Shown: in pieces, positions 17,388 through 58,827 of the stretch
Layout: every line of letters begins with the position of its first letter
Numbering within the stretch: the first letter of the stretch is position 1
From: a virus
IMG/VR virus record: IMGVR_UViG_3300037193_002017
Coordinates: 1 to 64,000 of that record
Direction: 5' to 3' (one strand)
DNA length: 64,000 nt
Program-made: the position numbers and the translations under genes
The notes under the pieces: generated by a model
Seen by the model: only the letters and a program-made list of their open reading frames with translations
What the model was told of the DNA's origin: nothing
Databases searched by the model: none

Positions 17388-17678
17388 GTGGACGCTGCCA
17401 CTGTCGGAGCAGTACTCGCGCTCGTCGGTGTCCTGTCGGGGTCGGTGGTCGCCTACCTCGGCAAGCGGGGTGAGAACGCGAACGCGCGGATGGTCGCCGA
17501 GATGGACCAGGTCCAGGAGGAGCGCGACAAGATGCTCGCCCAGCGTGATGCCCTGCAGACACACGTCAGTGAGAAGGAACGGCGGATCGAGGAGTTGCTG
17601 GAGCAGCGGCTCGCCGACCGGGAGACGATCGCGCGGCTGCGCGTGAGGATCGTTGAGATGGGGGGCGATCCGTCGTGA
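17388..17678 (+). CDS. Membrane-anchored coiled-coil lysis-cassette protein
   Basis: GTG after GGAGG; N-terminal TM helix then coiled coil. Confidence 0.7.
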
Positions 17679-18367
17679 CGCGTGCGGAGTTGGCGCTGGC
17701 CGGGCGGTGGCGGTGGATCGCCGTGTTCTGCTGGCTGATCGCCCTCACGGGGGCGGCGGTCGTCGGCTGGTCCTATTTTCAGCAGGCTGTTGCTGAGGCC
17801 GACCGGCGGGGCGAGGCCGTCAGCACCCTCGCCTCCGATGTTCGGGTGTTGCGGGAGCAGGTGAAAGCGGCGGGCGAGGTGCCGGCGGCGCCGGATCCGA
17901 GTCAGGCCGTCAAGGACCTCGAGGACCGGGCCCGGGTCCCCGTCCCCATTCCGGGCCCTGCAGGGCCTGCTGGGCCTGCCGGGGAGAAGGGCGAGCCCGG
18001 AGAGCCGGGATCGCCGGGGGCATCGGGCGAGCCGGGCCGCGATGGAAAGGACGGGGCAGACGGAGAGGCCGGCGCGCCTGGTGAACCCGGAGCAGAGGGC
18101 CCGGCCGGACCTGCAGGACCTGCCGGGCCGCCTGGTCCGCAAGGCGAGCCCGGCCCGGCTGGCCCGCAGGGCGAGCGTGGCGAGCAGGGGGAGCAGGGTC
18201 CGGCCGGGCCGTCGTGTCCGGAGGGGTACAGCCTGCAGGCGCCCTCGTGGGACCCGGACTCTCTGGTGTGCCGACGGGACGGGTCACCGCCCCCAGAGGA
18301 CGAAGGCGGCGGTGCGGTGGGGCTGCGGGCCGCTGGGCTGGATCCGACCCGACGACAGTACGTGTGA
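17675..18367 (+). CDS. Membrane-anchored collagen-like protein
   Basis: N-terminal TM helix, long Gly-X-Y run, C-terminal C...C motif. Confidence 0.85.
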
Positions 18368-18374
18368 GATGGCT

Positions 18375-18410
18375 GCGGCCCTCGCCCTCCTTCGGGAGGG
18401 CGAGGGCCGC
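18375..18410. terminator. Bidirectional terminator hairpin
   Basis: GCGGCCCTCGCCCTCC-TTCG-GGAGGGCGAGGGCCGC, 16-bp perfect stem between convergent genes. Confidence 0.85.
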
Positions 18411-18420
18411 TTCTCGTATG

Positions 18421-18897
18421 TCAGCTCGGTGGGACGGGGAAAAGGCCTTCGCCGCCGTACTCATACGGCTCTTCCATCCAGACTCCCCGGTACAGCTCGG
18501 CAGAGGTGAAGTCTCGAAAGTTCCGGGTAAGGAAGACGTCTGCTTCCGCATACACCGCAGTGGCCAGGTGCAGGGCGTCCATACCCCTGATCCGTGTCCG
18601 CTCGACGCTGATCTCCCGGGCGAGCAGACCAACGCGGCGGGTGACGTCGACCAGCGTCACGTACGGCTCCTGCAGCAGGTCACGAATCCGCTTCTCACCG
18701 GTGGTGGTGTCCCGCTGGCCGTTGGTCGTACCGCGGGCCTCGGCGAACATCGCGGTGGACGCGATGATTGTGACCTGCTTCCGCCTGGCGGCGTGCAGCC
18801 ACGTCTCCACGGCGGCGCAGCTGAACTTGCCCTCGGCCCAATCTATGTAGCAGCAACAGTCCAGGTATACGCGCCGCGGGTTGTCAGGCCTCGCCAC
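18421..18897 (-). CDS. PIN-domain (VapC-like) ribonuclease toxin
   Basis: VYLD, AE, DALHLATA, FLT.N..DF PIN motifs. Confidence 0.85.
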   Translation of the reverse strand: MARPDNPRRVYLDCCCYIDWAEGKFSCAAVETWLHAARRKQVTIIASTAMFAEARGTTNGQRDTTTGEKRIRDLLQEPYVTLVDVTRRVGLLAREISVERTRIRGMDALHLATAVYAEADVFLTRNFRDFTSAELYRGVWMEEPYEYGGEGLFPVPPS

Positions 18898-19738
18898 GGA
18901 TCACCGCCAGGTGCTGCAGAGCTCCGAGGCCGCCGGTCATATCGGGCCAGAACCCGCCGTGCAGGTCGTCCTCGGAGAGAGACGGCTCGGTGGGAAGCAG
19001 TTCGATGTCTTCCACCTTGATCTTCACTACCTGTCCCTGAGCGTTCTCCGTGATCAGACCTGTCACTTCCACCCGGTCATGCCCCCATGCCTGCCGCAGT
19101 TGCTCGCGATGTTCCTTGCCACAGATCAGTGGGATGCGCTCATGACCGACCTCTGACCAGAGCACCGCCTTCAGGTGGCCTCCTGTGTCAGACAGGCCGC
19201 CGAGGTGGCCGCGACGGGAGCCGTGGGTGGTGTAGCGGGCTTTGACCGCGTTGCTGAGGTTCCGGCGGGCGCGCTCGGTGACTTCGGCCTCCGCGACGAT
19301 CGTGTCGTTGACGCGTAGCGCCAGGTGCATCCCGACTTCCCTCGAGGCGCCAAGGGTACGGGCCACCAGAATGCCGAACTGGGCGGCATGCATGGTCCAG
19401 TCGGATGGGATCTCGGGGCGGTCCTCGGCCGCGGCGAATCCCTCTACGGTCTGGTGAAGCACCCTGTCAACCTGCTCGTAGCTGGAGGCCTCCGGCACCT
19501 GCAGTGGTGCCAGGGCCGCTCGAGTACTCCCCAGGCCGAGCTGGGTGAAGGTCCACCGTGTGTAGGCGGGACTACGTCGGCGGTTGGACGGCGAGGAGGG
19601 CAGTGGTGCTGAGCGGCCCGTCTCGGTGACCTCCAGCTCCTTGAGCAGGAGCAGGAGGGCCTCCATCGCTTTCAGAGTGGCGCCCGCGTCCATGCCAGCG
19701 TGGGGACCACGAAGCGTTATGTCGAGTTCAGAACCCAC
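18884..19738 (-). CDS. Hypothetical partner of the PIN toxin (possible sensor-antitoxin)
   Basis: GTG at 19738 with GGAGG; overlaps the PIN gene by 14 bp; beta-rich C-terminal domain. Confidence 0.7.
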   Translation of the reverse strand: MGSELDITLRGPHAGMDAGATLKAMEALLLLLKELEVTETGRSAPLPSSPSNRRRSPAYTRWTFTQLGLGSTRAALAPLQVPEASSYEQVDRVLHQTVEGFAAAEDRPEIPSDWTMHAAQFGILVARTLGASREVGMHLALRVNDTIVAEAEVTERARRNLSNAVKARYTTHGSRRGHLGGLSDTGGHLKAVLWSEVGHERIPLICGKEHREQLRQAWGHDRVEVTGLITENAQGQVVKIKVEDIELLPTEPSLSEDDLHGGFWPDMTGGLGALQHLAVIRGEA

Positions 19739-24636: not shown

Positions 24637-26013
24637 TTACATGGCTTCTGACCTGTCACGATACCCTCGCCTCCTGTTCCGCCAATCCTCCAGGAAGATC
24701 GTTTGGGCGGAATTTGGGAGATCAACTTCGGCAGGCCGCTTCACCAGGCTGACACGGCCCCACAGCGTCTCCCAGCCCAGGTTCCCCATCGCCCTCCAGA
24801 AGATCTCCTCCATGCCGTCGAGGCGCTCCTGCCGCATGTCCGGCGTCGGGTGCTGATACACGCCCTTGATGCCGGGCCGTTTGTGGCCGGCCTGCTCGAA
24901 GGCGAGCGCGGCCCGCACGCCGATCTGGTCCTGGAGCGAGTCGTGGAGGTGACGCAGGCCGCGCATCGTCAGCCCCGGCGCGAGCGGCTTCCACTCCTCG
25001 CGGTAGGAAGCACCCTGCCGCTTTTTGCGCTCGGGCCGGCCGTCGGCCGCGGGACGCAGGTACTGCTTGCCCCAGTTGTTGCGGCGCCACCACTTCCCGT
25101 TGGGCGTGCACAGCACCCAGTCGTACGGCCAGTCGGCGAGGTGGTACTGCCACAGCCGTGCCAGGAACGGCGGCAGGTCCAGGTCGCGGACGCGGTACTT
25201 GTTCTTCACGGGCTCGAGCCGCATGACGGTGCCGAGCTTCTTGCCGTCGACGTCACGGTCCTCGTACTCCGCGACCTCCTGGACGACACGCAGGACCGGG
25301 CACTCCCACATGCTGTTCCCCCACGCCTGCCTGCGGGTGAGCAGGCAGTGCTCTCGCTGCAGCCCGATTCCCTCACCCCAGTTGACCCCCGTGAACATCG
25401 TGGTGAGCACGTGCAGACCCTTGGCCGGCCCCAAGCGGTCAGCGACCTGCAGAACCGCTTCGGGGGAGTGGAGCTGCTTCTTGTCGTTGCCGCTCACGGG
25501 GACGACGGCGGGAGTGTGGTCCACCGGCTTGGTGCGCTTGCGCCCGAAGACCGGGTTGAGCGGCAGCCAGCGCGCGTCGACGGCGCCCGTGAGGATGGTG
25601 GACAGCAGCGACACACAGTGCCCCTTGGTGACGTCGTCGCACGGCAGGCCCATCTGCCAGGAGTCGACGTCGAACCAGGTGATCGAAATCAGCGGCGCGT
25701 GCTCCCACTTCGGCAGGATGTACTTGTCGAGGTTGTCCCAGCGGGTGTCCATCGTGCGGCCCCGCTTGGGGCGCTCGGCCATGTACTTCCTGGCGAACTT
25801 CCCGAACGGTGAGCGGTACAGGTCCGGATCGATCCAGGTGCCTTCCTTGATCTTCCGTTCCTGCTCTTCACCCCACTCCTCCGCCTTGTTCTTGGTCGGG
25901 AATCCCGGCTCGCTGCCGACGCTGCCGTCGGGTTTCTTGTATCGCGCCCTCCACGTGAACTGCTTCGTCTGCTTGCCATCACGGACTTTGTAGACCTTTT
26001 GTGCGTAGGCCAT
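24637..26013 (-). CDS. int: Tyrosine recombinase (phage integrase), atypical catalytic motifs
   Basis: N-terminal arm-binding region (WRARY..PDG, GF.TK..A..W), TGxxWGE, K, xxLRH, AGH, Y.H motifs; adjacent to att. Confidence 0.92.
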   Translation of the reverse strand: MAYAQKVYKVRDGKQTKQFTWRARYKKPDGSVGSEPGFPTKNKAEEWGEEQERKIKEGTWIDPDLYRSPFGKFARKYMAERPKRGRTMDTRWDNLDKYILPKWEHAPLISITWFDVDSWQMGLPCDDVTKGHCVSLLSTILTGAVDARWLPLNPVFGRKRTKPVDHTPAVVPVSGNDKKQLHSPEAVLQVADRLGPAKGLHVLTTMFTGVNWGEGIGLQREHCLLTRRQAWGNSMWECPVLRVVQEVAEYEDRDVDGKKLGTVMRLEPVKNKYRVRDLDLPPFLARLWQYHLADWPYDWVLCTPNGKWWRRNNWGKQYLRPAADGRPERKKRQGASYREEWKPLAPGLTMRGLRHLHDSLQDQIGVRAALAFEQAGHKRPGIKGVYQHPTPDMRQERLDGMEEIFWRAMGNLGWETLWGRVSLVKRPAEVDLPNSAQTIFLEDWRNRRRGYRDRSEAM

Positions 26014-26047
26014 GTCTCTCCCCCGCCGCGCGCGCCGAAGGCCGACC

Positions 26048-26452
26048 TCAGACGGCGTGGAGGTGGCGAGGTTGGCGCACGGGGCGGCGCTCCCAGTCCG
26101 GTGATCTCTCGGACTGATGACGGGTGATTGACTTGGCGCCGCGCTCGCTGATCAGACCATGGCGCACGGTGTACGCAATGCACGTCGGGCGGTCGTCGAC
26201 CACGATGAAGACGCCGTCCGGCAGGTCTGTGCGCAGATCCATGGTGACCGGGATCTGCGGCCCGCGAGGTGTCTCCGGTGCGCGGGGCATCCACCTACGG
26301 GCCTGTTCTGTCAGGGCCTCAGCAAAAAGTGAGGCCCCTTCTTCTGTGATGTCGTCGTTGTGGAAGTGCAGGACACATCCGGTGTCGTGATCTTCGATGT
26401 ATGGCAGGAAGTACTGCCCAGGCCGACGCTCCACTCCGATGGTGAGTTGCAC
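26048..26452 (-). CDS. Hypothetical protein with internal duplication, between repressor and integrase
   Basis: GTG 26452; two similar halves. Confidence 0.6.
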   Translation of the reverse strand: MQLTIGVERRPGQYFLPYIEDHDTGCVLHFHNDDITEEGASLFAEALTEQARRWMPRAPETPRGPQIPVTMDLRTDLPDGVFIVVDDRPTCIAYTVRHGLISERGAKSITRHQSERSPDWERRPVRQPRHLHAV

Positions 26453-42885: not shown

Positions 42886-43146
42886 CTACGCCTCGTCGCC
42901 CTTCTCCAGGTCGGCGCGCTTGCCCTGGCGAATCCCTTCCTGGCGCGCTTTCCAGTACTGGTCGAACCAGGCCACGTCGTACTCCGGGCGCGAACTCCCG
43001 GGTCTGAACACAGGAGCCGGCCAGCCCTCGGCGGGGTTGGTCGCAAGCCGGTGGATGTATGTCCGGCTCACACCCGCTCGCTCTGCGAGTTTCGGGATGG
43101 TCATTGTCTCCCTCTCCGGCTCCTGCCGCTCGGGGGCATCGGGCAT
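42886..43146 (-). CDS. AlpA/excisionase-like HTH regulator divergent from the membrane operon
   Basis: RBS GGAGG before ATG 43146; MTIPKLAERAGVSRTYIHRL....WP.P. Confidence 0.78.
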   Translation of the reverse strand: MPDAPERQEPERETMTIPKLAERAGVSRTYIHRLATNPAEGWPAPVFRPGSSRPEYDVAWFDQYWKARQEGIRQGKRADLEKGDEA

Positions 43147-43160
43147 GCGGACATCCTCCC

Positions 43161-43191
43161 CGAGAAGTGTGGACAATGTCCACACTTCTCG
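43161..43191. promoter_or_regulatory. Perfect 31-bp palindrome, putative operator
   Basis: CGAGAAGTGTGGACA-A-TGTCCACACTTCTCG in the divergent intergenic region. Confidence 0.75.
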
Positions 43192-43906: not shown

Positions 43907-45514
43907 GTGATCCTGGACCAGCCCTACGCGAGAGCGGCGGCCGAGTACTGGCCCACCGCCCTCGCCGCCGGCCTCCTCCTCACCACCCTCGCAGGCCTGT
44001 GCTGGCTGGTCGTGCGGCGTACCAGCGGCGCCGTCCTCACCGCCGGGATCGGCGCGCTCGTCTGCACCGCCTACACCGCCGACACCTCCTGGCGGTTCGC
44101 CGAGCACCGCCTGGACATGGCCGACCACACCGAGCGCCTGGTGATGTTCGCCGCCGGTGAGGTCGCCCTCCTCGCCTGCGCGGTCATGGCCCGAGCCAAC
44201 AAACGCGCCACCGCCACCGAGGACACCGCCGGCACCCCCGGCGTACCCGGCGTACTCGTGTGGACCATCACCGGCGTCCAGGTCATCCCCGCCTACTCCG
44301 AGTCCGGCATCATCGGCGGCACCGTCCGCGCCGTCTTCGGCCCCGTCATGGCCGCCCTGCTCTGGCACCTCGCCATGGGCCTGGAGATCCGCGTCGCCAA
44401 ACCGCAGGCCCTCTCCACCGGACTGCCCGCGCAGATCGGCCACGAGCTGCGCGAACGCCTGCTGTCCTACCTCGGACTGGCGACCCGGAACCGTACCGCG
44501 GAACAGATCAGCCGCGACCGCGCGACCGCCCGCGCCGTACGCCTCGCCTCCCGCCGCCACCGCGGCTGGTGGGCCCGCGCCGCCCTCAAGGCCGCGGTGG
44601 CCCGCTCCGGGGCGGCCGTCGACGGCGAGCGCCGCCACCAGCTCCTGCAGCTGCTCGCCGCACGCCGTACCGCGGCCGAGCTGAGCACCGTACCCGTCGT
44701 CTCGCCGTGGGTAGCCCAGCCCCTACCCGAGCCCTACCCGCCTACCCCGCTCGGCGTCACCGGCGCCGAACTGCGCGCCATGGACCCGATGGACGCCATC
44801 CTCCGGATACACGCCGCACGGCCCGACGCGACGCCCGCAGAGACCGCCGCGCTGTGCACGGAGTACGGCGTACCCGTCTCCGAGACCCTCGTACGGGTAG
44901 CCCTCCGCGCGGGCAACCCCGACCCCACCCCGCCCCCCGCCCCGGCCGTACCCGAGCGGCCCCAGCTCCACGCCGCACCCGCACCCGTGCCCGGCCCGCA
45001 GGACGCGCCCGTACCGGCCCTACCCGAGGCGGCCGAGCACGAGTACACCAGCCCCGGCCTGCACCTCGACCTCATCACCGCCCCCCGGGTACACCCCCAG
45101 GTAGCCTGCGCCGTCCCCGCCGCCCACGCCCGTACCCGGCCCGGCCGCACCGAGGTACACGCCCGCCTACCCGAACAGCCCGAAGCCATCCAGCACACCA
45201 CCGAGGGAGAACGCGCTACCCGGCCCGCGCAGCCCTCTACCCGGCCCGGGGTAGCCGCTCTACCCGAGCCCGTACCCGTACCCGGGGTAGACCCCAGGCC
45301 CGGCCCGGACGCCCTACCCCACCCCACGGGTACGGCGGGTAGGGACGGTGGCGGGGAGCAGGATCCGCTGCTCGACCGGGCCCGCGAGGTAGACGCCGCT
45401 CACCGCCGTACCCACCGCCGCCCGGCCAGCGTCCAGACCCTCAAGAAGGAGCTGCGGGTAGGGCAGAAGAAGGCCCAGCAGCTCCGTGACCTCCTCGCAG
45501 GCGAGCCCGCATGA
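43907..45514 (+). CDS. Multi-pass membrane protein (DUF2637/Spd-like) with Pro-rich linker and C-terminal FtsK-gamma-like wHTH
   Basis: 4-5 hydrophobic segments in the N-terminal ~160 aa; C-terminus DPLLDRA...ASVQTLKKELRVGQKKAQQL. Confidence 0.75.
   Translation: MILDQPYARAAAEYWPTALAAGLLLTTLAGLCWLVVRRTSGAVLTAGIGALVCTAYTADTSWRFAEHRLDMADHTERLVMFAAGEVALLACAVMARANKRATATEDTAGTPGVPGVLVWTITGVQVIPAYSESGIIGGTVRAVFGPVMAALLWHLAMGLEIRVAKPQALSTGLPAQIGHELRERLLSYLGLATRNRTAEQISRDRATARAVRLASRRHRGWWARAALKAAVARSGAAVDGERRHQLLQLLAARRTAAELSTVPVVSPWVAQPLPEPYPPTPLGVTGAELRAMDPMDAILRIHAARPDATPAETAALCTEYGVPVSETLVRVALRAGNPDPTPPPAPAVPERPQLHAAPAPVPGPQDAPVPALPEAAEHEYTSPGLHLDLITAPRVHPQVACAVPAAHARTRPGRTEVHARLPEQPEAIQHTTEGERATRPAQPSTRPGVAALPEPVPVPGVDPRPGPDALPHPTGTAGRDGGGEQDPLLDRAREVDAAHRRTHRRPASVQTLKKELRVGQKKAQQLRDLLAGEPA
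44690..45461. repeat. Dense array of TACCC(G)/(C)GGGTA motifs inside the coding sequence
   Basis: About 24 copies counted by eye in ~780 bp, both orientations. Confidence 0.8.
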
Positions 45515-45882
45515 ACCACGCTGCAGAGCCCCTGGACCTGGCCGCCGCCAGCACCCCCGCCAGCGCGTTACCGCACCGAAGGAACCCCGTGATACTCGCC
45601 GCCCTCGTGGCGCTCGGCCTGGCCCCCGGCCTGATCACCGCCGTACACGTGCACCGCACCCACGGCCCCGTCAGAGCCGCCCTCGCCGCCGCCGGCGTCA
45701 CTCTCGCCCTGGCCGCCGCGCTGCTCGGCGTCCTCCTCGTCTTCCCGCCGCTCGCCATCGCCTGCGCGGCCGGATGCGTCCTGGCCGCGCTCCGCGCCTA
45801 CGACCAGGCGCGCCTCACTGCGGCGAGCAGCTGGCTGAGCTTGGCCGGCCTGTTCGCGTGGTGTGCGAGGTGGCGGTCATGA
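45511..45882 (+). CDS. Small multi-pass membrane protein with TTA codon
   Basis: ATGA overlap; about four hydrophobic segments. Confidence 0.65.
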   Translation: MNHAAEPLDLAAASTPASALPHRRNPVILAALVALGLAPGLITAVHVHRTHGPVRAALAAAGVTLALAAALLGVLLVFPPLAIACAAGCVLAALRAYDQARLTAASSWLSLAGLFAWCARWRS

Positions 45883-46424
45883 GCAAGGACACCCCCATCG
45901 TCCCCACCCGCGTCATCCCCGCCGGCGTACCCCTGCCCGCCCGGCCCCCCGAGCCCGGCGAGGTACCCCCCTGGCGCACCCCGCCTACCCCACCACCGGC
46001 TACCCCGCCCGTACCCCCTCCGCCTGCGCCGCCTGCGGAGCCTCAGGCCGTCGTCGTACGCCACGTCCACGAAGTGGTCCTGGTCGTCCCCGACCCCGAG
46101 CCGGAACCCCGGCTGTGGGAACGCCTCTGGGAACGGCTGTTCACGTGGCGGATGATCGCCGCGATCCTCGCCGCCCTCCTTCCGTGGGCGGCCGGGCAGA
46201 GCCCCGTCGGCCTGTGGTCCCACACCGTCCACCAGGCCCGCGCCGAGGCGGGGATCGTCGCTGCGTACGTCATCGCCGCCGTCGCCGTCGCCGCGACGTG
46301 GGCCCTGGACCGGCGTACCGGCCGTCTCGTGCCCCGCTTCCTCCTTGTCACCAGCTCACTCGGGGCGTTCGGCGTCCTGCACTGGTTCGACCCCATCACC
46401 CTGCTCACCGGAGTCCACCTGTGA
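45879..46424 (+). CDS. Membrane protein with Pro-rich N-terminus (SpdD-like architecture)
   Basis: ATGA overlap; Pro-rich N-terminus then three TM helices. Confidence 0.65.
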   Translation: MSKDTPIVPTRVIPAGVPLPARPPEPGEVPPWRTPPTPPPATPPVPPPPAPPAEPQAVVVRHVHEVVLVVPDPEPEPRLWERLWERLFTWRMIAAILAALLPWAAGQSPVGLWSHTVHQARAEAGIVAAYVIAAVAVAATWALDRRTGRLVPRFLLVTSSLGAFGVLHWFDPITLLTGVHL

Positions 46425-46933
46425 CCGCCACCAACACCCTCACCATCGGCGGCCTCCTCGCCGCCCTGATCATCCTGACCTGCAACCTCTACCCCTGGTG
46501 GACCGGCAACAGGGAGATGAAGCAGCTCTCTTCGTTCGGCAAGGGGTTCGGGGCCGCCGCCTGTGCCGCGGCGTGCCCGGGCGGCATCCTCGGCTGGGCT
46601 CACCACCGATCCGGAACCATCGCCAACGACACCGGCGAGAAGACCAGCACCGCCGTCACCGGCACATCCTCCGCCGCTGGCCTGACCACCGGGCAGCTCG
46701 TCGGCCTCGGCGCCACGGGCGCGGTCGTCGTGGTCATCGCGGTCACCCTCGTCGTCCTGTCGTACAAGGCGGCGGGGAAGAAAGACAAGAAGCGGATCAT
46801 CGGCGGCGCCTTCGTCGGCTCCACGTTCTGCCTCACCGCAGGCGTCGCCGGGGCCCTGTCCTGGCTTCCTGCCGCCCTCAACGCGGCTGGCGGCGGCATC
46901 CTCGCCTTCTTCCAGGGCGCGGGCATCCTGTGA
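46421..46933 (+). CDS. Gly/Ala-rich membrane protein
   Basis: GTGA overlap; 3-4 hydrophobic segments. Confidence 0.68.
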   Translation: MTATNTLTIGGLLAALIILTCNLYPWWTGNREMKQLSSFGKGFGAAACAAACPGGILGWAHHRSGTIANDTGEKTSTAVTGTSSAAGLTTGQLVGLGATGAVVVVIAVTLVVLSYKAAGKKDKKRIIGGAFVGSTFCLTAGVAGALSWLPAALNAAGGGILAFFQGAGIL

Positions 46934-47520
46934 GCCGCCTCGCCTGTATCGCCGACCGTCTCGCCACCGGCTCCCGCCTCCACACCCGCCGCCTCGTGAA
47001 CGGGGCCGTGGCCTGGTGCGCGCGCGGCCGACGCGACGACCTCAAGGGCTGGAAAGCGGCCCTCGGCATCATCGCCCGCCTCGCCCTCCTCGCCGTCGGC
47101 GCGTACGTACTGGCCCGCCTCGTACGGGCCCTGCCGTCCCTCATGTGGCTGCTCACCGGATGGTGGACGCTCGCCTCCTGGCGGGCCGGGAAACCCGCCG
47201 ACACCCCCCAGGAGAAGGCCCCCGAGGGGCGATCGGTGGAGGCCGACCGGGAGGCCGTCCGCACCCTCCTGCTCACGGTCATGGGGGAGGCGGACAAGGT
47301 GCACCTCCGGGCCGTCCTCGCCCACCTCCACCAACAGGGCCAGTGGGAGGGCCGCACGGTCACCGATATGCGCCACCGACTGGCCGCCCTGGACATCCCC
47401 TTCGACCGCTCCGTGAAGGTGGCCGGAATCCCCACCTGGGGGGTCCGCCGAAACGACCTGCAGACCCCTTCCCCAGCCACCGCCGAGGAAGCGTCTCCCA
47501 CCGCGTCTACCGCCGCCTGA
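46930..47520 (+). CDS. Membrane-anchored wHTH protein resembling the TraB C-terminus, no ATPase domain
   Basis: Two TM helices then VMGEADKVHLRAVLAHL...W....DMR.RL..L.I......V......GVRRNDL. Confidence 0.65.
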   Translation: MSRLACIADRLATGSRLHTRRLVNGAVAWCARGRRDDLKGWKAALGIIARLALLAVGAYVLARLVRALPSLMWLLTGWWTLASWRAGKPADTPQEKAPEGRSVEADREAVRTLLLTVMGEADKVHLRAVLAHLHQQGQWEGRTVTDMRHRLAALDIPFDRSVKVAGIPTWGVRRNDLQTPSPATAEEASPTASTAA

Positions 47521-47579
47521 CCTGCACGTCTACCGGCCGTCTACCGCCATCTACCGATGCATCTACCGGCCGTCTACCG
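47504..47579 (+). repeat. Six direct repeats of CRTCTACCG (clt/TRS-like)
   Basis: Copies at 47504, 47527, 47538, 47548, 47560, 47571. Confidence 0.88.
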
Positions 47580-52856: not shown

Positions 52857-53159
52857 ATGAGCGATCAACCGAAACGTGTCCGAGCCGGAGCCGTCGCCAA
52901 GGCAACCGCCGCCGAGCTCGATGACCTGGGGCTTGACCCGAAGACGAACGCCGCTGCGGCCTCCGCCCTCCGCCTCGCGAAGGTCATGGACTCGACTGCC
53001 GACCCCAAGGAGCTCGCCGCCGCCGGGCGCGAGCTCCGCCAGACCATGAATACAGCGCGTGGCCTCGCTCCCCCGAAGGCGCTCGGCGACCGGATCGACC
53101 AGCTGGCCGACCGGCGCGAGAAGCGGCTCTCCCCTCGGGCCGCTAAGGGCACCGCGTGA
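52857..53159 (+). CDS. terS: Terminase small subunit
   Basis: RBS GGAGG; ALRLA..MD, A...ELR, D..D.L..RR; GTGA overlap with the large subunit. Confidence 0.8.
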   Translation: MSDQPKRVRAGAVAKATAAELDDLGLDPKTNAAAASALRLAKVMDSTADPKELAAAGRELRQTMNTARGLAPPKALGDRIDQLADRREKRLSPRAAKGTA

Positions 53160-54718
53160 TCGGCTGCCAGACACCGCGGATCCTGTCCGTGCCGTGGTAC
53201 CGACGCGTGGACACGGGGCGGTGGGACGGCACCGAGGACCAGGTCGCGCTGGACTTCCGCTCGCCCGCGGGCACGGAGTGCATCGAGCTCGCGGAGGAGG
53301 CGGGCCTCGACCTCGACATCTGGCAGCAGCTCGCCCTGCACCACAGCCTCGACGAGGATGCCGAGGGCCGGTGGACGTCGCTCGAGGTCGTCCTCAACAT
53401 CGCGCGCCAGAACGGCAAGGGCGGATACCTCGAGGCCAGACAGATCGGCGGCGTGATCCTCTTCGGGGACGAGCTCGTCATCCACACCGCGCACCAGTTC
53501 AACACCGCGCAGGAGAGCTTCCTTCGGCTCGACCGGATCTTCGAAGGGTCCGCGTCACTGAGTCGCCGCATCAAGCGCGTACGCCGCTCGCATGGCGAGG
53601 AGGGCTTCGAGTTCTTCAACGGCGCCAGGATCCGTTTCCTGGCGCGGGGCGGGGACAGCGGCCGCGGGTTCTCCGGTGACCTGGTCATCATGGACGAGGC
53701 CATGAAGCTGCGGGCCGCGCCCGTGGGCGCCCTCATGCCGGTGCTGTCCGCCCGCCGCAACCCTCAGCTCGTGTTCACCGGGTCGGCCGGTCTGGGGGCT
53801 GAGAGCGAGCAGCTGGCGCTGCTGCGGGCCCGTGCGATGGCGGAGGAGGGCGGGCCGGACCCGTCTTTGACGTACCTGGAGTACTCGATCGCGCCGCACG
53901 TGAAGGAGTGCCCGCGCGATGAGGACGGCCGGGTCGTGTGCACGGCTCATGACGACCGGGACGACGAGCGGTCGTTCGCCCGGGCCAACCCGGCGCTGGG
54001 CATCCGGATCCGCACGTCGTACGTACAGCGGGAGATGCGGGGCATGCGTGAGGACCTGTTCGACCGTGAGCGCCTCGGTGTGGGGGACTACCCGGAGGTC
54101 AGCGACGAGACGTGGCAGGTCATCGCGAAGGAGGCCTGGGAGGCGCTCACGGACGCCAGCTCGCGTCCGACGGACCCGGTGGCGTTCGCCATCGACACCA
54201 ACCCGGAGCGGACGTGGACGGCCATCTCGGTGGCCGCCGAGTCGTCGGGCGGTGGCCGGCACATCGAGGTCGTTGCCCACCAGCCCGGCACGGACTGGGT
54301 CGTGGACTGGGTTGCTGAGCGTGACGAGAAGTGGAAGCCATGCGCGTGGGTCATCGACGAGGGCGGTCCGGCCGGGTCGCTTGTGCCAGCGCTGCGGAAG
54401 AAGCTGGCCGGGAAGCACCCGGTGGGCAGCGACCTGGGGCGCGATCGCTTCCTGGTGTCGCCAAAGGTGCGGGAGATCGTGCAGGCCTGCGGCGCCTTCT
54501 ACGACCGGGTGAAGGACGGCTCACTCGCCCACATCGGCCAGTCACCGCTGGCGACCGCTCTCGCCGGCGCGAAGAAGCGCGACCTGGGTGATGCGTGGGC
54601 GTGGGCACGGCGCAGTGAGGGTGTGGACGTGAGCCCGCTGGTGGCCGGGACGTATGCGTTGTGGGGCTGGGAGAAGTTCCACGACGAGGAGCCGGAAGGG
54701 GCGCCGAACCTGTGGTGA
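53156..54718 (+). CDS. terL: Terminase large subunit
   Basis: ARQNGKG, GRGFSGDLVIMDEA, ANPALG, AFAID, DVSPLVA. Confidence 0.95.
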   Translation: MIGCQTPRILSVPWYRRVDTGRWDGTEDQVALDFRSPAGTECIELAEEAGLDLDIWQQLALHHSLDEDAEGRWTSLEVVLNIARQNGKGGYLEARQIGGVILFGDELVIHTAHQFNTAQESFLRLDRIFEGSASLSRRIKRVRRSHGEEGFEFFNGARIRFLARGGDSGRGFSGDLVIMDEAMKLRAAPVGALMPVLSARRNPQLVFTGSAGLGAESEQLALLRARAMAEEGGPDPSLTYLEYSIAPHVKECPRDEDGRVVCTAHDDRDDERSFARANPALGIRIRTSYVQREMRGMREDLFDRERLGVGDYPEVSDETWQVIAKEAWEALTDASSRPTDPVAFAIDTNPERTWTAISVAAESSGGGRHIEVVAHQPGTDWVVDWVAERDEKWKPCAWVIDEGGPAGSLVPALRKKLAGKHPVGSDLGRDRFLVSPKVREIVQACGAFYDRVKDGSLAHIGQSPLATALAGAKKRDLGDAWAWARRSEGVDVSPLVAGTYALWGWEKFHDEEPEGAPNLW

Positions 54719-54963
54719 ACGACGACCAGGCGGAAGACGCGAACAGCCGTGACCGAGCGGGCCGTTGGCTGGTGATCCTCGAGACGGTGTTTGTCCTGGT
54801 CATCGTGGCGGGCGTCGCGCTCGTGCATGTGCCGGGCGCGCTGATGCTGGCCGGGGTGCTGGGGGTGCTGGCGTGCGAGCGCGCGCTGGCCCGGCGCCAG
54901 GCCGAGGAACGTGTCCCTGGGGAGGGGCGCGGTGGGGAAGCGGCGGGAGGTGAGCGGCAGTGA
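54715..54963 (+). CDS. Small membrane protein between terminase and portal
   Basis: Two TM helices; GTGA overlaps. Confidence 0.65.
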   Translation: MNDDQAEDANSRDRAGRWLVILETVFVLVIVAGVALVHVPGALMLAGVLGVLACERALARRQAEERVPGEGRGGEAAGGERQ

Positions 54964-56279
54964 CAGCTGGGTTGTTCGGCCTGTTCGACGGGCGGTCGAG
55001 GAGGGGGCTGGAGAGCCCGGCGCAGCCGCTCACCTCCGCCGCGCTGGCGGAGTACCTCGGTGGCGTGCAGTCGGACGCCGGGGTGCCGGTATCGGAGACG
55101 ACCGCACTGCGGGCGTCACCAGTGTGGCGGGCTGTGGCGCTGATTGCCGGGGTGTCGGCGGCGCTGCCGCTGCCGACATACAAGGAGGGCACGCGAGAGA
55201 AGCAGGCCGCTGACCTGCTGAAATACCCGCATCCCGATCTCACGCCGGTGGAACTGTGGCGGTTCGCGTACCTGTACCGGGTGCTGTGGGGCAACACGTA
55301 CATCCAGAAGGTGCGCGACGGGGCCGGCCAGATCCGGGAGCTGTGGCCGGTGTCCGCCGATCGGGTCCGCGTGGATCGGATCAAGCCGGACGAGGCGAAC
55401 CCCACCGGCAAGCTGTTTGACGTCGTGGACGACTGGGGCGTGCACCACGTGTGGACGCCCCATCAGATGCTGCACATCCCTGGCCTGGGGTACGACGGCC
55501 TCACCGGCTGCTCACCCGTACGGCTGGCCACACAGGGCATCGGCCTGGCGCAGGCCGCCGAGAAGTCGGCGGCCCGTCTGTTCGGGTCGGGCAACATGAT
55601 CGGCGGCGTGCTGCAGACCGAGCAGCGCCTCGACCCGGACCAGGCCGCCCGGCTGAAGGAACGCTGGAAGGCCAAGATGTCCGGCGTCCACAACAGCCAC
55701 GAGATCGCCGTGCTCGATTCGGGCGCCAGCTTCAAACCAGTGCAAATGCCGAACACCGACGCCCAGTTCCTCGAGAGCAGGCAGTTCCAGGTCACGGAGA
55801 TCGCCCGCATGTTCGGCGTGCCGCCGTTCCTGCTGATGTCCACCGAGAAGAGCACCAGCTGGGGGACGGGGCTGGAGCAACAGGCGCAGGGCTGGGTCAC
55901 GTTCGACCTCAACCCGACATGGCTGACGCCGACCGAGCAGCGCGTGACCAAAGAGCTGCTGCCACGGTCGCTGTACGCGAACTACCAGATGGGCGGCCTG
56001 CTGCGCGGCGACTCGGCGGCGAGAGCCACGTTCTACCGGGCAATGCGCGACATCGGCGCCTACAGCGCGAACGACATCCGGGCGCTCGAGGAGATGCCGC
56101 CGCTGACGGAGAACGGCGACGTCTACCTGCAGCCCATGTACATGGCACCGCTCGGGTCCAACCCCCTCGACCCTGGCGGGGAGGCGCCGGCGGGCTCGAA
56201 CCGGGCGCGGGCGGCCGCGCTGATGGCGGAGGCACAGCGTCTGTTGCAGACGCCTGACGATGCTGAGGAAGGCACCTGA
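54960..56279 (+). CDS. Portal protein (HK97 family)
   Basis: GN.Y, LH......DGL.G.SP, DAQFLE.R, EIARMFGVPP, N..RA.E..P. Confidence 0.95.
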   Translation: MTAGLFGLFDGRSRRGLESPAQPLTSAALAEYLGGVQSDAGVPVSETTALRASPVWRAVALIAGVSAALPLPTYKEGTREKQAADLLKYPHPDLTPVELWRFAYLYRVLWGNTYIQKVRDGAGQIRELWPVSADRVRVDRIKPDEANPTGKLFDVVDDWGVHHVWTPHQMLHIPGLGYDGLTGCSPVRLATQGIGLAQAAEKSAARLFGSGNMIGGVLQTEQRLDPDQAARLKERWKAKMSGVHNSHEIAVLDSGASFKPVQMPNTDAQFLESRQFQVTEIARMFGVPPFLLMSTEKSTSWGTGLEQQAQGWVTFDLNPTWLTPTEQRVTKELLPRSLYANYQMGGLLRGDSAARATFYRAMRDIGAYSANDIRALEEMPPLTENGDVYLQPMYMAPLGSNPLDPGGEAPAGSNRARAAALMAEAQRLLQTPDDAEEGT

Positions 56280-57514
56280 TGAGGACTCTGACGAGGACGA
56301 CGACCGAGGAACACCGCCGTCTGCCGTTGTCCACGGCAGAGGTCGCCATCCGGGCGGCCGACGGCGACGACGGAGGCGAGCGGTTCAAGGGCTACGCCGC
56401 GGTGTTCAACTCCCGTACCGCGATCGGGAATCCGTTGAGGTGGGGGTTCTACGAGGAGATCGCGCCCGGGGCGTTCACGAAGACGCTGTCAGAGGGCGAT
56501 GCGCGGATGCTCATCGACCACGACTCGTACTTCGTCGTATCGAGGGTGTCGGCCGGCAGCCTGGACCTGGCCGAGGACGGGCGCGGCCTGGCCGTCGACT
56601 CCGCCCTCGACGCTGGCCTGTCGTACGTCAACGACCTGAAGGCCAACGTCCGGAACAAGAACATCACCGGCATGTCGTTCGGGTTCTACGTCGTCAAGGA
56701 CGACTGGACCTTGGAGAAGGTGGAGACCTCCGACGGACAGACCGCCGAGGTCGAGATCCGCCGGATCCTCGAGGTTCGCCTCATCGAGGTGTCCGCGGTG
56801 ACGTTCCCCGCGTACGAGGACACCGAGGCCGAACTCGCCAGCGTCCGCTCCGCGCTCCTGCGGCGCGGCGACCAGCAGGCCATCGAGCAGCGCGCGAAGT
56901 ACCGACCGGAGCTGCGGGACCTCCTGCAGCTCGTCGGCGAGGAGACGCCCGCCGAGGACACCCCGGCGGCCCGTACGGCCCCGGCCGTCGAGGAGCGGGC
57001 CGCGCTGGCGGTCCACTCCACCAGTACGTCGGATGCGGCGTGGGACGGTCCGGCGAACTCGAAGGATCTCCCCCAGGAGGAGTCGGCGCTGAGGATGGCG
57101 CACGCCTGGGTGGACCCCGAGGGCGACGCCGACACCAAGAGCAGCTACCGGTTCATCCACCACTTCGTGGGCGTGGACGGCGACGTCGGCGCCGCCTCAA
57201 CCGTCGCGTGCACCACGGCGATCGGCGTCCTCAACGGCGCCCGCGGCGGCACCACCATCCCCGACGAGGACCGCGAGGCGGTCTACAAGCACCTGGCCCG
57301 GCACCTGAAGGACGCCGGGCTGAAGGCGCCAGAGCTGAAGGCAGTTGGCAGCGAGCCGGGTGAGTCCACTCGCGAGACCAGCACACCGGAGACCGACCCC
57401 GCGGACACGGACGACACCGAGCCGGCAGAGACCACTCGGAGCGACCTCGACGCGCGCGTACTCCGGATGAAGGGCCTGGCCGCCCGCTTCGGGCTGGCCG
57501 CGCCCAGCTCGTAA
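56279..57514 (+). CDS. Prohead protease (HK97/U35 type) with extra C-terminal domain
   Basis: GYAAVFN, E.I.PGAF, DHD, MSFGF, L.EVS.VTFPAY. Confidence 0.92.
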   Translation: MRTLTRTTTEEHRRLPLSTAEVAIRAADGDDGGERFKGYAAVFNSRTAIGNPLRWGFYEEIAPGAFTKTLSEGDARMLIDHDSYFVVSRVSAGSLDLAEDGRGLAVDSALDAGLSYVNDLKANVRNKNITGMSFGFYVVKDDWTLEKVETSDGQTAEVEIRRILEVRLIEVSAVTFPAYEDTEAELASVRSALLRRGDQQAIEQRAKYRPELRDLLQLVGEETPAEDTPAARTAPAVEERAALAVHSTSTSDAAWDGPANSKDLPQEESALRMAHAWVDPEGDADTKSSYRFIHHFVGVDGDVGAASTVACTTAIGVLNGARGGTTIPDEDREAVYKHLARHLKDAGLKAPELKAVGSEPGESTRETSTPETDPADTDDTEPAETTRSDLDARVLRMKGLAARFGLAAPSS

Positions 57515-57527
57515 CCCGTACTCACCC

Positions 57528-57560
57528 CGAAGGCCCGTGACCAGCTGGTGCGGGCCTTCG
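57528..57560 (+). terminator. Hairpin between protease and capsid genes
   Basis: CGAAGGCCCG...CGGGCCTTCG. Confidence 0.6.
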
Positions 57561-57582
57561 CCATGTCTGAAAGAGGAAGCAC

Positions 57583-58827
57583 ATGAGCGAGCAGCTCAGG
57601 CGGCTCATCGACGAGCAGAACACCCTGTGGCAGCGGATGCAGGACATCCAGACTGCCGCCGAGGGCGAGAAGCGCGACCTTACCGCCGAGGAGCGGCAGA
57701 ACTGGGACCAGGCGGAGGAACGGCTCACCGTCGTCTCCGGGGACATCGAGCGCCTCAACCGCATGGCCCAGATGTCGAAGATCGACCGCAGCCAGATCGC
57801 CGTCACCACCGGCGAGCCGGAGGGCCGCCGCGGCGGCGACCCCGGGGAGCAGGCGAAGCGGTACGCCGAGACCTTCGGGGCGTACCTGCGCGGCGGCATG
57901 GACCGGCTCACGCCGGACCAGCGGAACCTGATGATGGACCACGAGGTCGACCTGCGCGCGATGAGCGCGGGCATCGACACCGCCGGCGGGTTCACCGTGC
58001 CGGACGAGTTCCGCAACATCATGACCGAGACGATGAAGGCATACGGCGGCCTCCTCGCCCTGGCCGACGTCATCACGACCTCGACGGGCGCCGACCTGAA
58101 GTGGCCGACCAACGACGACACCGGCAACGAGGGCGAGATCCTCGGCGAGAACGACGAGGCCGGCGAACAGGACCTCAGCGTCGGCGGCCGGACGCTGAAG
58201 GCGTACACCTTCTCCTCCAAGCAGGTGAAGCTGTCCATGCAGCTCCTGCAGGACTCGGCGTTCAACCTCGAGACGTGGGTGCCCAGGAAGCTCGGCGAGC
58301 GCATCGGCCGCCGCGCAGCCCGCGCGTTCACCACCGGCACCGGCGTCGACCAGCCCGAGGGCCTGGCCACCAGCGCGGCCGTCGGCAAGCAGGGCGCCTC
58401 CGGCCAGACCACGTCGGTCATCTACGACGACCTGGTCGACCTCGAGCACTCCGTCGACAGCGCGTACCGGCCCAACGGCAGGTACCTCATGCACGACTCG
58501 ACCCTGAAGGTGATCCGCAAGCTGAAGGACACCCAGGGCCGCCCGCTGTGGGTTCCGGTCCCGGCCCCCGGCTTCCCTTCGACGATCAACGGCTTCGAGT
58601 ACTCGCTCGACAACTCGATGCCCACCCCGGCCGCGTCCGCAAAGACGATCGCGTTCGGCGACTTCAAGGCCGGCTACGTCATCCGCCAGGTGCAGAGCGT
58701 GCAGACGCTGCGCCTGAACGAGCGGTACGCCGAGAAGCTGCAGGTCGGTTTCCTGGGGTTCGCCCGCCTCGACGGCATGATCCAGGACTCGTCCGCGATC
58801 CGCATGTACCAGCACGCCGCCAGCTGA
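57583..58827 (+). CDS. Major capsid protein (HK97 family, N-terminal coiled-coil delta domain)
   Basis: AGGFTVP.EF, S.QLLQDSA, GTG..QP.GL, LKD..GRPLW, FGDF, R.DG. Confidence 0.95.
   Translation: MSEQLRRLIDEQNTLWQRMQDIQTAAEGEKRDLTAEERQNWDQAEERLTVVSGDIERLNRMAQMSKIDRSQIAVTTGEPEGRRGGDPGEQAKRYAETFGAYLRGGMDRLTPDQRNLMMDHEVDLRAMSAGIDTAGGFTVPDEFRNIMTETMKAYGGLLALADVITTSTGADLKWPTNDDTGNEGEILGENDEAGEQDLSVGGRTLKAYTFSSKQVKLSMQLLQDSAFNLETWVPRKLGERIGRRAARAFTTGTGVDQPEGLATSAAVGKQGASGQTTSVIYDDLVDLEHSVDSAYRPNGRYLMHDSTLKVIRKLKDTQGRPLWVPVPAPGFPSTINGFEYSLDNSMPTPAASAKTIAFGDFKAGYVIRQVQSVQTLRLNERYAEKLQVGFLGFARLDGMIQDSSAIRMYQHAAS

Follow-up and report, generated by a model that had tools for sequence, protein, structure and literature searches.

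Why would a gene for a membrane protein carry, in its 3' half, two dozen copies of a short DNA word that the protein sequence alone does not explain? The question is raised by a viral contig, IMG/VR record IMGVR_UViG_3300037193_002017 (76,977 bp), whose first 64,000 nt (70% G+C) make up the stretch analysed here and called the window. The gene encodes a 535-amino acid (aa) protein with an N-terminal membrane anchor and a C-terminal helix-turn-helix (HTH) domain, referred to below as the head, and the cluster of words within it is called array 1. The initial annotation, made from the sequence alone, had located about 24 copies of TACCC/GGGTA in this gene and some more downstream, and had proposed that the gene doubles as a centromere-like binding array for its own product. 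The observation is confirmed and the interpretation is partly supported: the gene probably serves also as its own product's docking site on the phage DNA. The elements at issue are the following.

43907 to 45514, plus strand: gene for the membrane-anchored HTH protein (535 aa), which opens a run of five overlapping genes (open reading frame; G+C at third codon positions, GC3, 0.88).
44691 to 45460, both strands: array 1, 24 copies of TACCC/GGGTA with the extended site (C/G)GGGTA(G/C)G, defined by motif count and codon nulls.
45928 to 46016, plus strand: five extra TACCC copies, spill-over of array 1 in the Pro-rich start of the third operon gene.

A recount returned 24 copies, each at most one base away from the position first claimed, with starts at 44691, 44709, 44724, 44735, 44743, 44871, 44895, 44949, 45021, 45087, 45133, 45168, 45217, 45238, 45249, 45261, 45273, 45279, 45285, 45315, 45328, 45337, 45409 and 45456. 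The plus strand reads TACCC 16 times and GGGTA eight times, so that both orientations are indeed used, and the further copies expected at about 45925-46020 correspond to five TACCC at 45928-46012. With 24 copies in about 770 bp and 61 in the remaining 76 kb of the contig, the density represents a 35-fold excess, the enrichment reaching 51-fold for TACCCG and 82-fold for CTACCC. A longer consensus of the site reads (C/G)GGGTA(G/C)(G)(G/C). Six copies of array 1, from a contig total of eight, read as the octamer GGGTAGGG. This octamer fits GGGNAGGG, the consensus form of the Escherichia coli FtsK-orienting polar sequences (KOPS).

The excess was compared with two codon nulls. When the synonymous codons were shuffled inside the region, so that its own unusual codon usage was retained, a mean of 8.8 copies was obtained (standard deviation 1.8), and when the same protein was redrawn with codon frequencies taken from 15 other contig genes the mean was 1.55 (standard deviation 0.82). 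The observed 24 exceeds the maxima of both nulls, 19 and 5 respectively in 5000 draws each. In the 3' half of the gene GTA accounts for 16 of the 23 Val codons and CTA for five of the 25 Leu codons, against 4.5% and 1.3% in the other genes of the contig. The copies occur in all three reading frames (16, 6 and 2), and 24 of the 32 TA dinucleotides of the stretch fall within the motif. Tandem Repeats Finder returned only scraps, meaning that array 1 is dispersed rather than a tandem repeat. The codon fractions, both nulls and the codon choice at a conserved peptide described below thus agree with the claim that the motif is written through rare GTA and CTA codons and is unexplained by the protein sequence. 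Selection on the motif acts at the DNA level and not through the protein sequence, and there is little doubt that array 1 is a cis-acting DNA element.

Arrays of this kind are found in most of the related genes compared. The protein has more than 1146 relatives, essentially all from Streptomyces and with at least 569 genome loci, and the comparison set comprised 80 genome loci and 72 viral-contig loci, which provided 125 usable homologous genes from Streptomyces prophages and plasmids. With enrichment defined as a 5-mer reaching a Bonferroni-corrected Poisson p < 1e-3, an enriched 5-mer was present after the membrane domain in 109 of the 125 genes and within the membrane part in only four. The place of the array is conserved: in full-length loci it begins at about nucleotides +680 to +800, past the membrane/helical domain, and extends to the gene end. 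Its downstream spill-over is seen also at the loci L029, L033 and L011 and in the cultured phage VWB.

The sequence of the word, in turn, is specific to the lineage. The array words among homologues include CGGGTAC(G), CGGGTAG(GG) (the window, L028, L007 and L010), CAGGTAC, GCGCACCCG, TGCGCA (the class of L018), GGATGCG, CCGCAGCCG, CGGGGAC(C/G)G (up to 36 copies), GGCGTCCTGG, CCGGAAC, CGGACA and GAGAC (40 copies). The word classes number at least ten, seven of which lie inside one HTH family and fit GGNT[AG][CG]G. The GAGAC copies lie past the membrane part of a distant homologue, L150 (IMGVR_UViG_2765235989_000002), which is 38% identical in the membrane domain and ends in yet another type of C-terminus. 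Codon choice follows the class even where the protein does not change. At the conserved peptide GVPVS, all GGGTA-class loci with Val-Pro use GTA CCC, the AGGTAC-class locus has GTA CCT, and the TGCGCA and GCAGCC classes have GTG CCA or GTG CCC. Such class-dependent codons indicate that the synonymous choice serves the lineage-specific DNA word.

What could read these words? The whole 535-aa protein matched no Pfam, PHROG or NCBIfam family, and its architecture was taken from an AlphaFold2 model built on 105 homologues, which predicts membrane helices at residues 4-164, more helices up to residue 259 and, at residues 335-485, a Pro-rich disordered linker of about 150 aa. Its folded parts are as follows.

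43907 to 44686, plus strand: N-terminal polytopic membrane and helical domain, aa 1-260 (AlphaFold2 helices 4-164 and 173-259).
44762 to 44905, plus strand: small four-helix middle domain, aa 286-333 (predicted local distance difference test, pLDDT, about 95).
45365 to 45499, plus strand: C-terminal three-helix HTH, aa 487-531, FtsK-gamma-like and wingless (pLDDT 97 in the full model).

Array 1 extends from just past the membrane/helical domain to the recognition helix. It spans the linker-coding DNA and reaches into both folded domains that flank it (sites 44871, 44895, 45409 and 45456), with one site, CGGGTAGGG, overlapping the codons of the conserved R-V-G-Q that opens helix 3. The N-terminal domain is the best-conserved section of the protein. 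In the ESM Atlas, the N-domain of a homologue had DUF2637 clusters (0.94 and 0.91) and SpdB_N clusters (0.83) as its nearest neighbours, and one source names the homologue P0093 as DUF2637. The DUF2637 hidden Markov model (HMM; PF10935), however, matched neither the protein, nor the six-frame translation of the contig, nor 19 homologues, and a kinship resting on language-model similarity without an HMM match is taken as a lead only.

The C-terminal segment had been said to parallel FtsK gamma, the domain that reads KOPS, and this likeness is borne out, weakly but consistently. In a search of the Protein Data Bank with a profile of 39 C-terminal domains, FtsK gamma chains came top (E about 0.01) and made up five of the seven matches. 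The Pfam family FtsK_gamma (PF09397) was likewise the top match for the window's domain (16.6 bits, E 0.0066) and matched 11 of the 39 family members, with a best E of 9.4e-5. A domain-only model of the HTH (mean pLDDT 83) was superimposed by VIA-align on the FtsK gamma structure 5dcf with a Z of 5.9 and a root-mean-square deviation (rmsd) of 1.4 Å over 45 aa at 24% identity, and on 2ve8 with a Z of 5.5, FtsK gamma giving the lowest rmsd and highest identity among all structural matches of this model. Foldseek was less informative: nothing significant was found for the full model against the Protein Data Bank, with FtsK gamma 2ve9 at rank 41 as the sole telling row, and for the domain-only model every E value was about 1, owing to the small size of the domain. 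A relationship of the head to FtsK gamma is plausible from sequence and model, but it would be a remote one, without wing and without motor. No FtsK/SpoIIIE motor precedes the head in the same protein, and a profile search of 1.8 billion representatives returned 676 relatives of the head, in proteins that range from 40 to 550 aa and nearly all carry it at the very C-terminus, with no FtsK-sized protein (>550 aa) among the best 150. Many of these relatives are proteins of about 80 aa that comprise little beyond the gamma-like IGQ domain. A tblastn search of plasmids with the C-terminal domain found no tra gene.

A pointer to the reader is that the array words group according to which kind of DNA-binding domain the C-terminus carries; every gamma-like class fits GGNT[AG][CG]G:

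Gamma-like IGQ C-terminus: word fitting GGNT[AG][CG]G, median 19.4 sites per kb versus 1.6 in the others.
RDGN..GGRNE C-terminus: word GGGGAC, median 23.7 sites per kb versus 0 in the others.
Xis/HTH_17-like C-terminus: word GCGTCC, median 24.2 sites per kb versus 1.5 in the others.
RRWL C-terminus: word CGGAAC, median 27.2 sites per kb versus 0 in the others.

Two other candidate partners fare poorly. The middle domain is kept in many homologues and missing from some array-bearing ones, among them L034; since L034-type homologues retain both the array and a gamma-like head, the middle domain is not the array's partner. A divergently transcribed small HTH protein encoded upstream keeps 82-94% identity where the neighbouring array is of the GCAGCC type (L033) or of the GGGTAC type (L008), and so is not the reader of array 1. 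Within the gamma-like class, the highest mutual information with the word class belongs to residue 509, the first of HTH helix 2 (0.69), with residue 513 scoring 0.54, compared with a maximum of 0.40 over 217 N-domain columns. Mapped onto an N-domain tree built with FastTree, the C-terminal type undergoes at least 12 changes, versus 36 with shuffled labels, although tree error may inflate the former number. As a predictor of shared motif class, C-domain identity is only slightly better than N-domain identity (area under the receiver operating characteristic curve 0.71 versus 0.64).

The array gene is followed by four further genes and a second array, and preceded by putative regulatory elements:

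45511 to 45882, 45879 to 46424, 46421 to 46933 and 46930 to 47520, plus strand: four further membrane-protein genes, in PHROG families of unknown function.
47493 to 47579, plus strand: array 2, six direct TCTACCG and one TCTCCC variant, across and past the stop of the fifth gene (46930-47520).
42886 to 43185, minus strand: divergent small HTH gene with a PHROG match of excisionase/regulator type.
43161 to 43191: perfect 15-1-15 palindrome that reaches into the 5' end of the HTH gene at 42886-43185.

The five genes of the operon overlap their neighbours as ATGA or GTGA. The divergent HTH gene likely regulates the operon, with the palindrome as its likely operator. Five short operon contigs (four exact and one with a single mismatch, depth 2.5-6) were found in a plant metatranscriptome and may be DNA carry-over, and a raw-read RNA run (X9) gave only three partial reads. 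Six of the ten TCTACCG copies of the window lie in array 2, at 47506-47579 (74 bp). The word TCTACC, with some TCTCCC, occupies the same place at L006, L009, L012, L018, L032, L033, L036 and L037 and in the cultured phage Kromp, and its counterpart in VWB is TCTCCC. Array 2 and the fifth protein vary little across loci whose array 1 differs, from which it follows that the operon has two anchor-and-array pairs varying independently. Contigs from two public runs (X1, a DNA library, and X5, an RNA library) branch off inside array 2, at 47534, adding TCTACC units, and this suggests either variation in repeat number or assembly ambiguity.

These elements could be brought together in the following model. 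The 3' half of the gene would do double duty, coding for the linker and the DNA-binding head and, as double-stranded DNA, offering the head of the same protein 24 (plus 5) docking sites of the form (C/G)GGGTA(G/C)G. The N-terminal helices would insert the protein into the membrane, and the disordered linker would allow the C-terminal HTH to reach the DNA. Many closely spaced sites of 7-8 bp would favour high-avidity binding by many heads, and such binding is proposed to hold the phage DNA at the membrane at the array locus. The fifth protein of the operon may act likewise on its own TCTACCG array, and the five coupled membrane proteins would then constitute a motor-less module resembling the spread (Spd) genes of Streptomyces plasmids, which might anchor or hand over phage DNA at hyphal membranes for spreading or segregation. 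That the gene's own gamma-like head is the reader of array 1 is the most economical explanation and is moderately favoured; for the membrane tethering of phage DNA by this product, in a motor-less spread-like module, the chances appear even.

Several observations weigh against this reading. Five homologues with an LSRRDA-type C-terminus have no significant array. The initial annotation had raised the possibility that motif and recognition helix co-vary among homologues; the word does change with the type of C-terminal domain, but the helix IGQxxAQxxR is highly conserved across classes with different words, so that no residues stand out as setting the specificity. Residue 509 probably belongs to the core of the fold, and its high mutual information can reflect ancestry. 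Because the array adjoins the C-terminal domain, joint inheritance by linkage alone could produce the co-variation, and the phylogenetically independent pairs on well-supported N-domain branches number one to four, too few for a sign test. The Pfam score of the window's head lies well below the FtsK_gamma cut-off of 30.6, fold matches with Z of 5-6 are equally reached by many generic winged-helix proteins, and the C-terminal beta wing of FtsK gamma is absent from the models, the protein ending four residues past helix 3. Finally, neither an FtsK/SpoIIIE motor (PF01580) nor a ParA-type ATPase (PF13614, PF01656) was matched anywhere in the 77-kb contig, ParM and TubZ not having been searched for, and the lack of a motor or partition ATPase leaves the purpose of tethering unexplained.

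The missing motor leads to the alternative that survives best, although it is unlikely: array 1 could be a borrowed loading site, similar to KOPS or to the clt loci of plasmids, for a foreign reader such as the TraB of a co-resident element or an FtsK-like translocase of the host. With six of the eight GGGTAGGG octamers of the contig lying in array 1 and fitting the KOPS form, the idea is kept alive for the window's lineage. It is also consistent with the strong strand bias of some arrays (25:3 in L002, 12:0 in L034 and 21:2 in L032), as expected for polar loading sites, and with the known design of Streptomyces clt, in which TraB reads clusters of 7-9-bp repeats that adjoin the 3' end of a tra gene or lie within it (PMC3583192, PMC4447253). 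Against it, the words differ widely among prophages of a single genus, beyond what one conserved host FtsK could read, and they sort by the gene's own C-terminal domain; the searches described above, moreover, returned no tra gene and no FtsK-sized protein carrying such a head. In the L002 host chromosome (G001) the pattern CGGGTACGG occurs 475 times, versus 338 for the reversed control. Among the matches listed there, 48 successive copies at 1.60-2.94 Mb are all on the plus strand and earlier ones are mixed. The run, which does not include the L002 array itself, could reflect a strand skew of the word along one arm of the chromosome, or else an artefact of how the matches were listed.

A second alternative keeps the gene's own product as the reader and changes the purpose: the anchor encoded by a resident prophage would trap DNA that enters the cell with the same array, resulting in exclusion or incompatibility. 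It would account for the diversified, lineage-specific pairs of word and reader, and the operon does have its own divergent regulator and palindrome; short identical operon contigs in one RNA library, which may be DNA carry-over, add weakly to it. Diversified pairs of site and reader are equally a property of partition and transfer systems, however, and this purpose is considered improbable.

Still less can be said for a replication origin or a packaging (pac) site. A classical design places iterons in the DNA that encodes an initiator's linker, as in phage lambda O: its binding-site repeats are found there, within gene O, and among related phages they change along with the binding domain. Lambda, however, has four 19-bp iterons with an AT-rich region and a soluble initiator, unlike the 24 short words and the membrane protein described here. 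Short direct repeats are used also by Streptomyces plasmid replication loci (PMC3583192). The product of the array gene is nevertheless a polytopic membrane protein without a match to any replication-protein family, its stretch is GC-rich with no AT-rich unwinding element seen in the sequence read there, array 1 lies 8 kb from the terminase gene, and a second, independent array goes with another membrane protein of the same operon. Together these points make an origin or pac site very unlikely. Least probable of all, and strongly disfavoured, is that there is no binding site and that the array reflects rare-codon clustering for translational pausing, peptide repeats or local mutation bias: rare GTA and CTA codons are concentrated in the disordered linker and GGGGAC-class words lie in peptide repeats such as GDRPHTVPN, but shuffling the same rare codons falls far short of the observed count, the copies occupy all frames and both strands without forming a tandem repeat, and the words of other lineages use common codons and shift synonymously with class at a conserved peptide.

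Docking by the gene's own product, the reading preferred here, can be set beside established pairs of site and reader. A search of the accessible literature found no description of intragenic arrays of this kind. The design is a variant of such pairs (clt-TraB, KOPS-FtsK gamma and sps-SpdA2) and is widespread. TraB binds repeated 8-bp clt words through helix 3 of its C-terminal winged HTH, and clt loci have four to nine short repeats whose sequence varies from plasmid to plasmid (PMC3583192, PMC4447253). With the TraB/clt systems of pSVH1, pJV1 and pWTY27 the present arrays share clusters of 7-9-bp repeats at or inside the 3' end of the gene for the reader, a membrane-anchored reader, here a candidate, whose C-terminal (winged) HTH is akin to FtsK gamma, and words that vary between elements. 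They also form clusters of short direct or inverted repeats, with 24 sites in 770 bp in array 1 and six in 74 bp in array 2. They differ in that the element is a tailed prophage, that the protein lacks an FtsK/SpoIIIE motor and the contig a translocase gene, hence no FtsK-like tra gene beside the repeats, and that 24-29 sites are spread over 0.8-1.3 kb, versus four to nine in the 50-175 bp of clt. The window's sites, in addition, are embedded in coding sequence and point in both directions.

The likeness to FtsK gamma and KOPS consists of the three-helix core, the best match both by sequence profile and by rmsd, and of an 8-bp G-rich word, putative in the case of the window's head, that six sites represent in KOPS-fitting form. 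Unlike KOPS, the sites of the window are clustered in one gene instead of being skewed along a chromosome, and related prophages use other words. Partition centromeres (parC, parS, tubC) also have arrays of about ten or more short repeats and diversified specificity, and their repeats are bound cooperatively by a small HTH or ribbon-helix-helix protein from an adjacent gene, for which the window has a candidate. In the present case the sites are intragenic, the candidate reader is membrane-anchored and no ParA-type NTPase was found in the contig; of the parts of a ParABS system, then, an array and a candidate binder are present and the ATPase was not found.

SpdA2 of the Streptomyces plasmid pIJ101 binds palindromic sps sites inside its own gene, and their synonymous removal affected segregational stability (PMC4170104). 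The sites of the candidate reader similarly lie inside its own coding region in a Streptomyces mobile element, but sps is a 12-bp palindrome in two to three copies and SpdA2 is a soluble protein of 135 aa with an N-terminal binding region (PMC4170104), compared with 24 copies of non-palindromic 7-8-bp words and a 535-aa membrane protein. No sequence relationship to SpdA2 was found, and the pair lacks what would place it with SpdA/sps. SpdB2 resembles the present protein in being an integral membrane protein from an operon of small overlapping membrane-protein genes; its binding to double-stranded DNA, in contrast, was reported to be non-specific, and no cognate array has been described for it (PMC4447253).

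The contig itself has the gene content of a tailed phage, with terminase, portal, protease and capsid genes in the window:

53156 to 54718: terminase large subunit gene, a tailed-phage gene.
54960 to 58827: portal, protease and capsid genes, tailed-phage head genes.
24637 to 26151, minus strand: integrase gene.

The contig begins within the 3' end of a capsid-like gene (1-528) and holds a second, complete head module at 54960-58827, with the integrase gene between the two. Two sets of head genes separated by an integrase make the contig look like two tandem prophages rather than one phage, and CheckV nevertheless rates the record as 100% complete.

The same design occurs in two cultured phages. 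In VWB, gp24 (439 aa) has a membrane domain, an acidic and Pro-rich linker and an IGQ-type head, and its gene carries 22 copies of CG[C/A]ACCCG, falling with L032 in the GCACCC word class; VWB has, in addition, a homologue of the window's fifth gene. In Kromp, gp82 has a different head and CGGACA occurs 20 times, and gp83-85 match the third to fifth genes of the window's operon. The annotation of VWB gp25 (L155, positions 17668-18918 of the record) probably joins a stretch that carries array words to a real but smaller gene: the Arg-rich N-terminal portion of about 240 aa looks like a wrong-frame translation, the C-terminal part matches the fourth gene of the window, and the gp24 array words CGCACCCG/ACCCG run on into the gp25 stretch.

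If docking by the gene's own product is correct, the family would represent dual coding on a large scale, with hundreds of Streptomyces prophages and plasmids carrying 10-40 protein-binding words in one gene, written by synonymous and linker-permissive choices. The naturally matched pairs of reader and word could show how heads of the FtsK-gamma/TraB type read 8-bp words, and VWB and Kromp make the system experimentally accessible. A broader proposal is tentative and carries a modest likelihood: that these genes form a large undescribed family in Streptomyces phages and plasmids, in which motor-less FtsK/TraB-like anchors, co-evolving with arrays of 10-40 sites in their own linker-coding DNA, similar to KOPS or TraB recognition sequences, act with a second anchor-array pair to tether prophage DNA at hyphal membranes and, with no need for virions, carry it into spores or from one compartment to another. 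Putative SpdB2 homologues have been reported on the actinophages phiC31 and VWB, and Thoma et al. suggested that they help phage DNA to spread (PMC4447253). The present findings bear on the question, left by that 2015 study, of why such phages carry spread-like membrane genes and whether phage DNA spreads in the mycelium, a question that becomes testable now that a cis site and a candidate reader are defined. If the model holds, the motor-less anchor family would be the phage counterpart of plasmid spreading.

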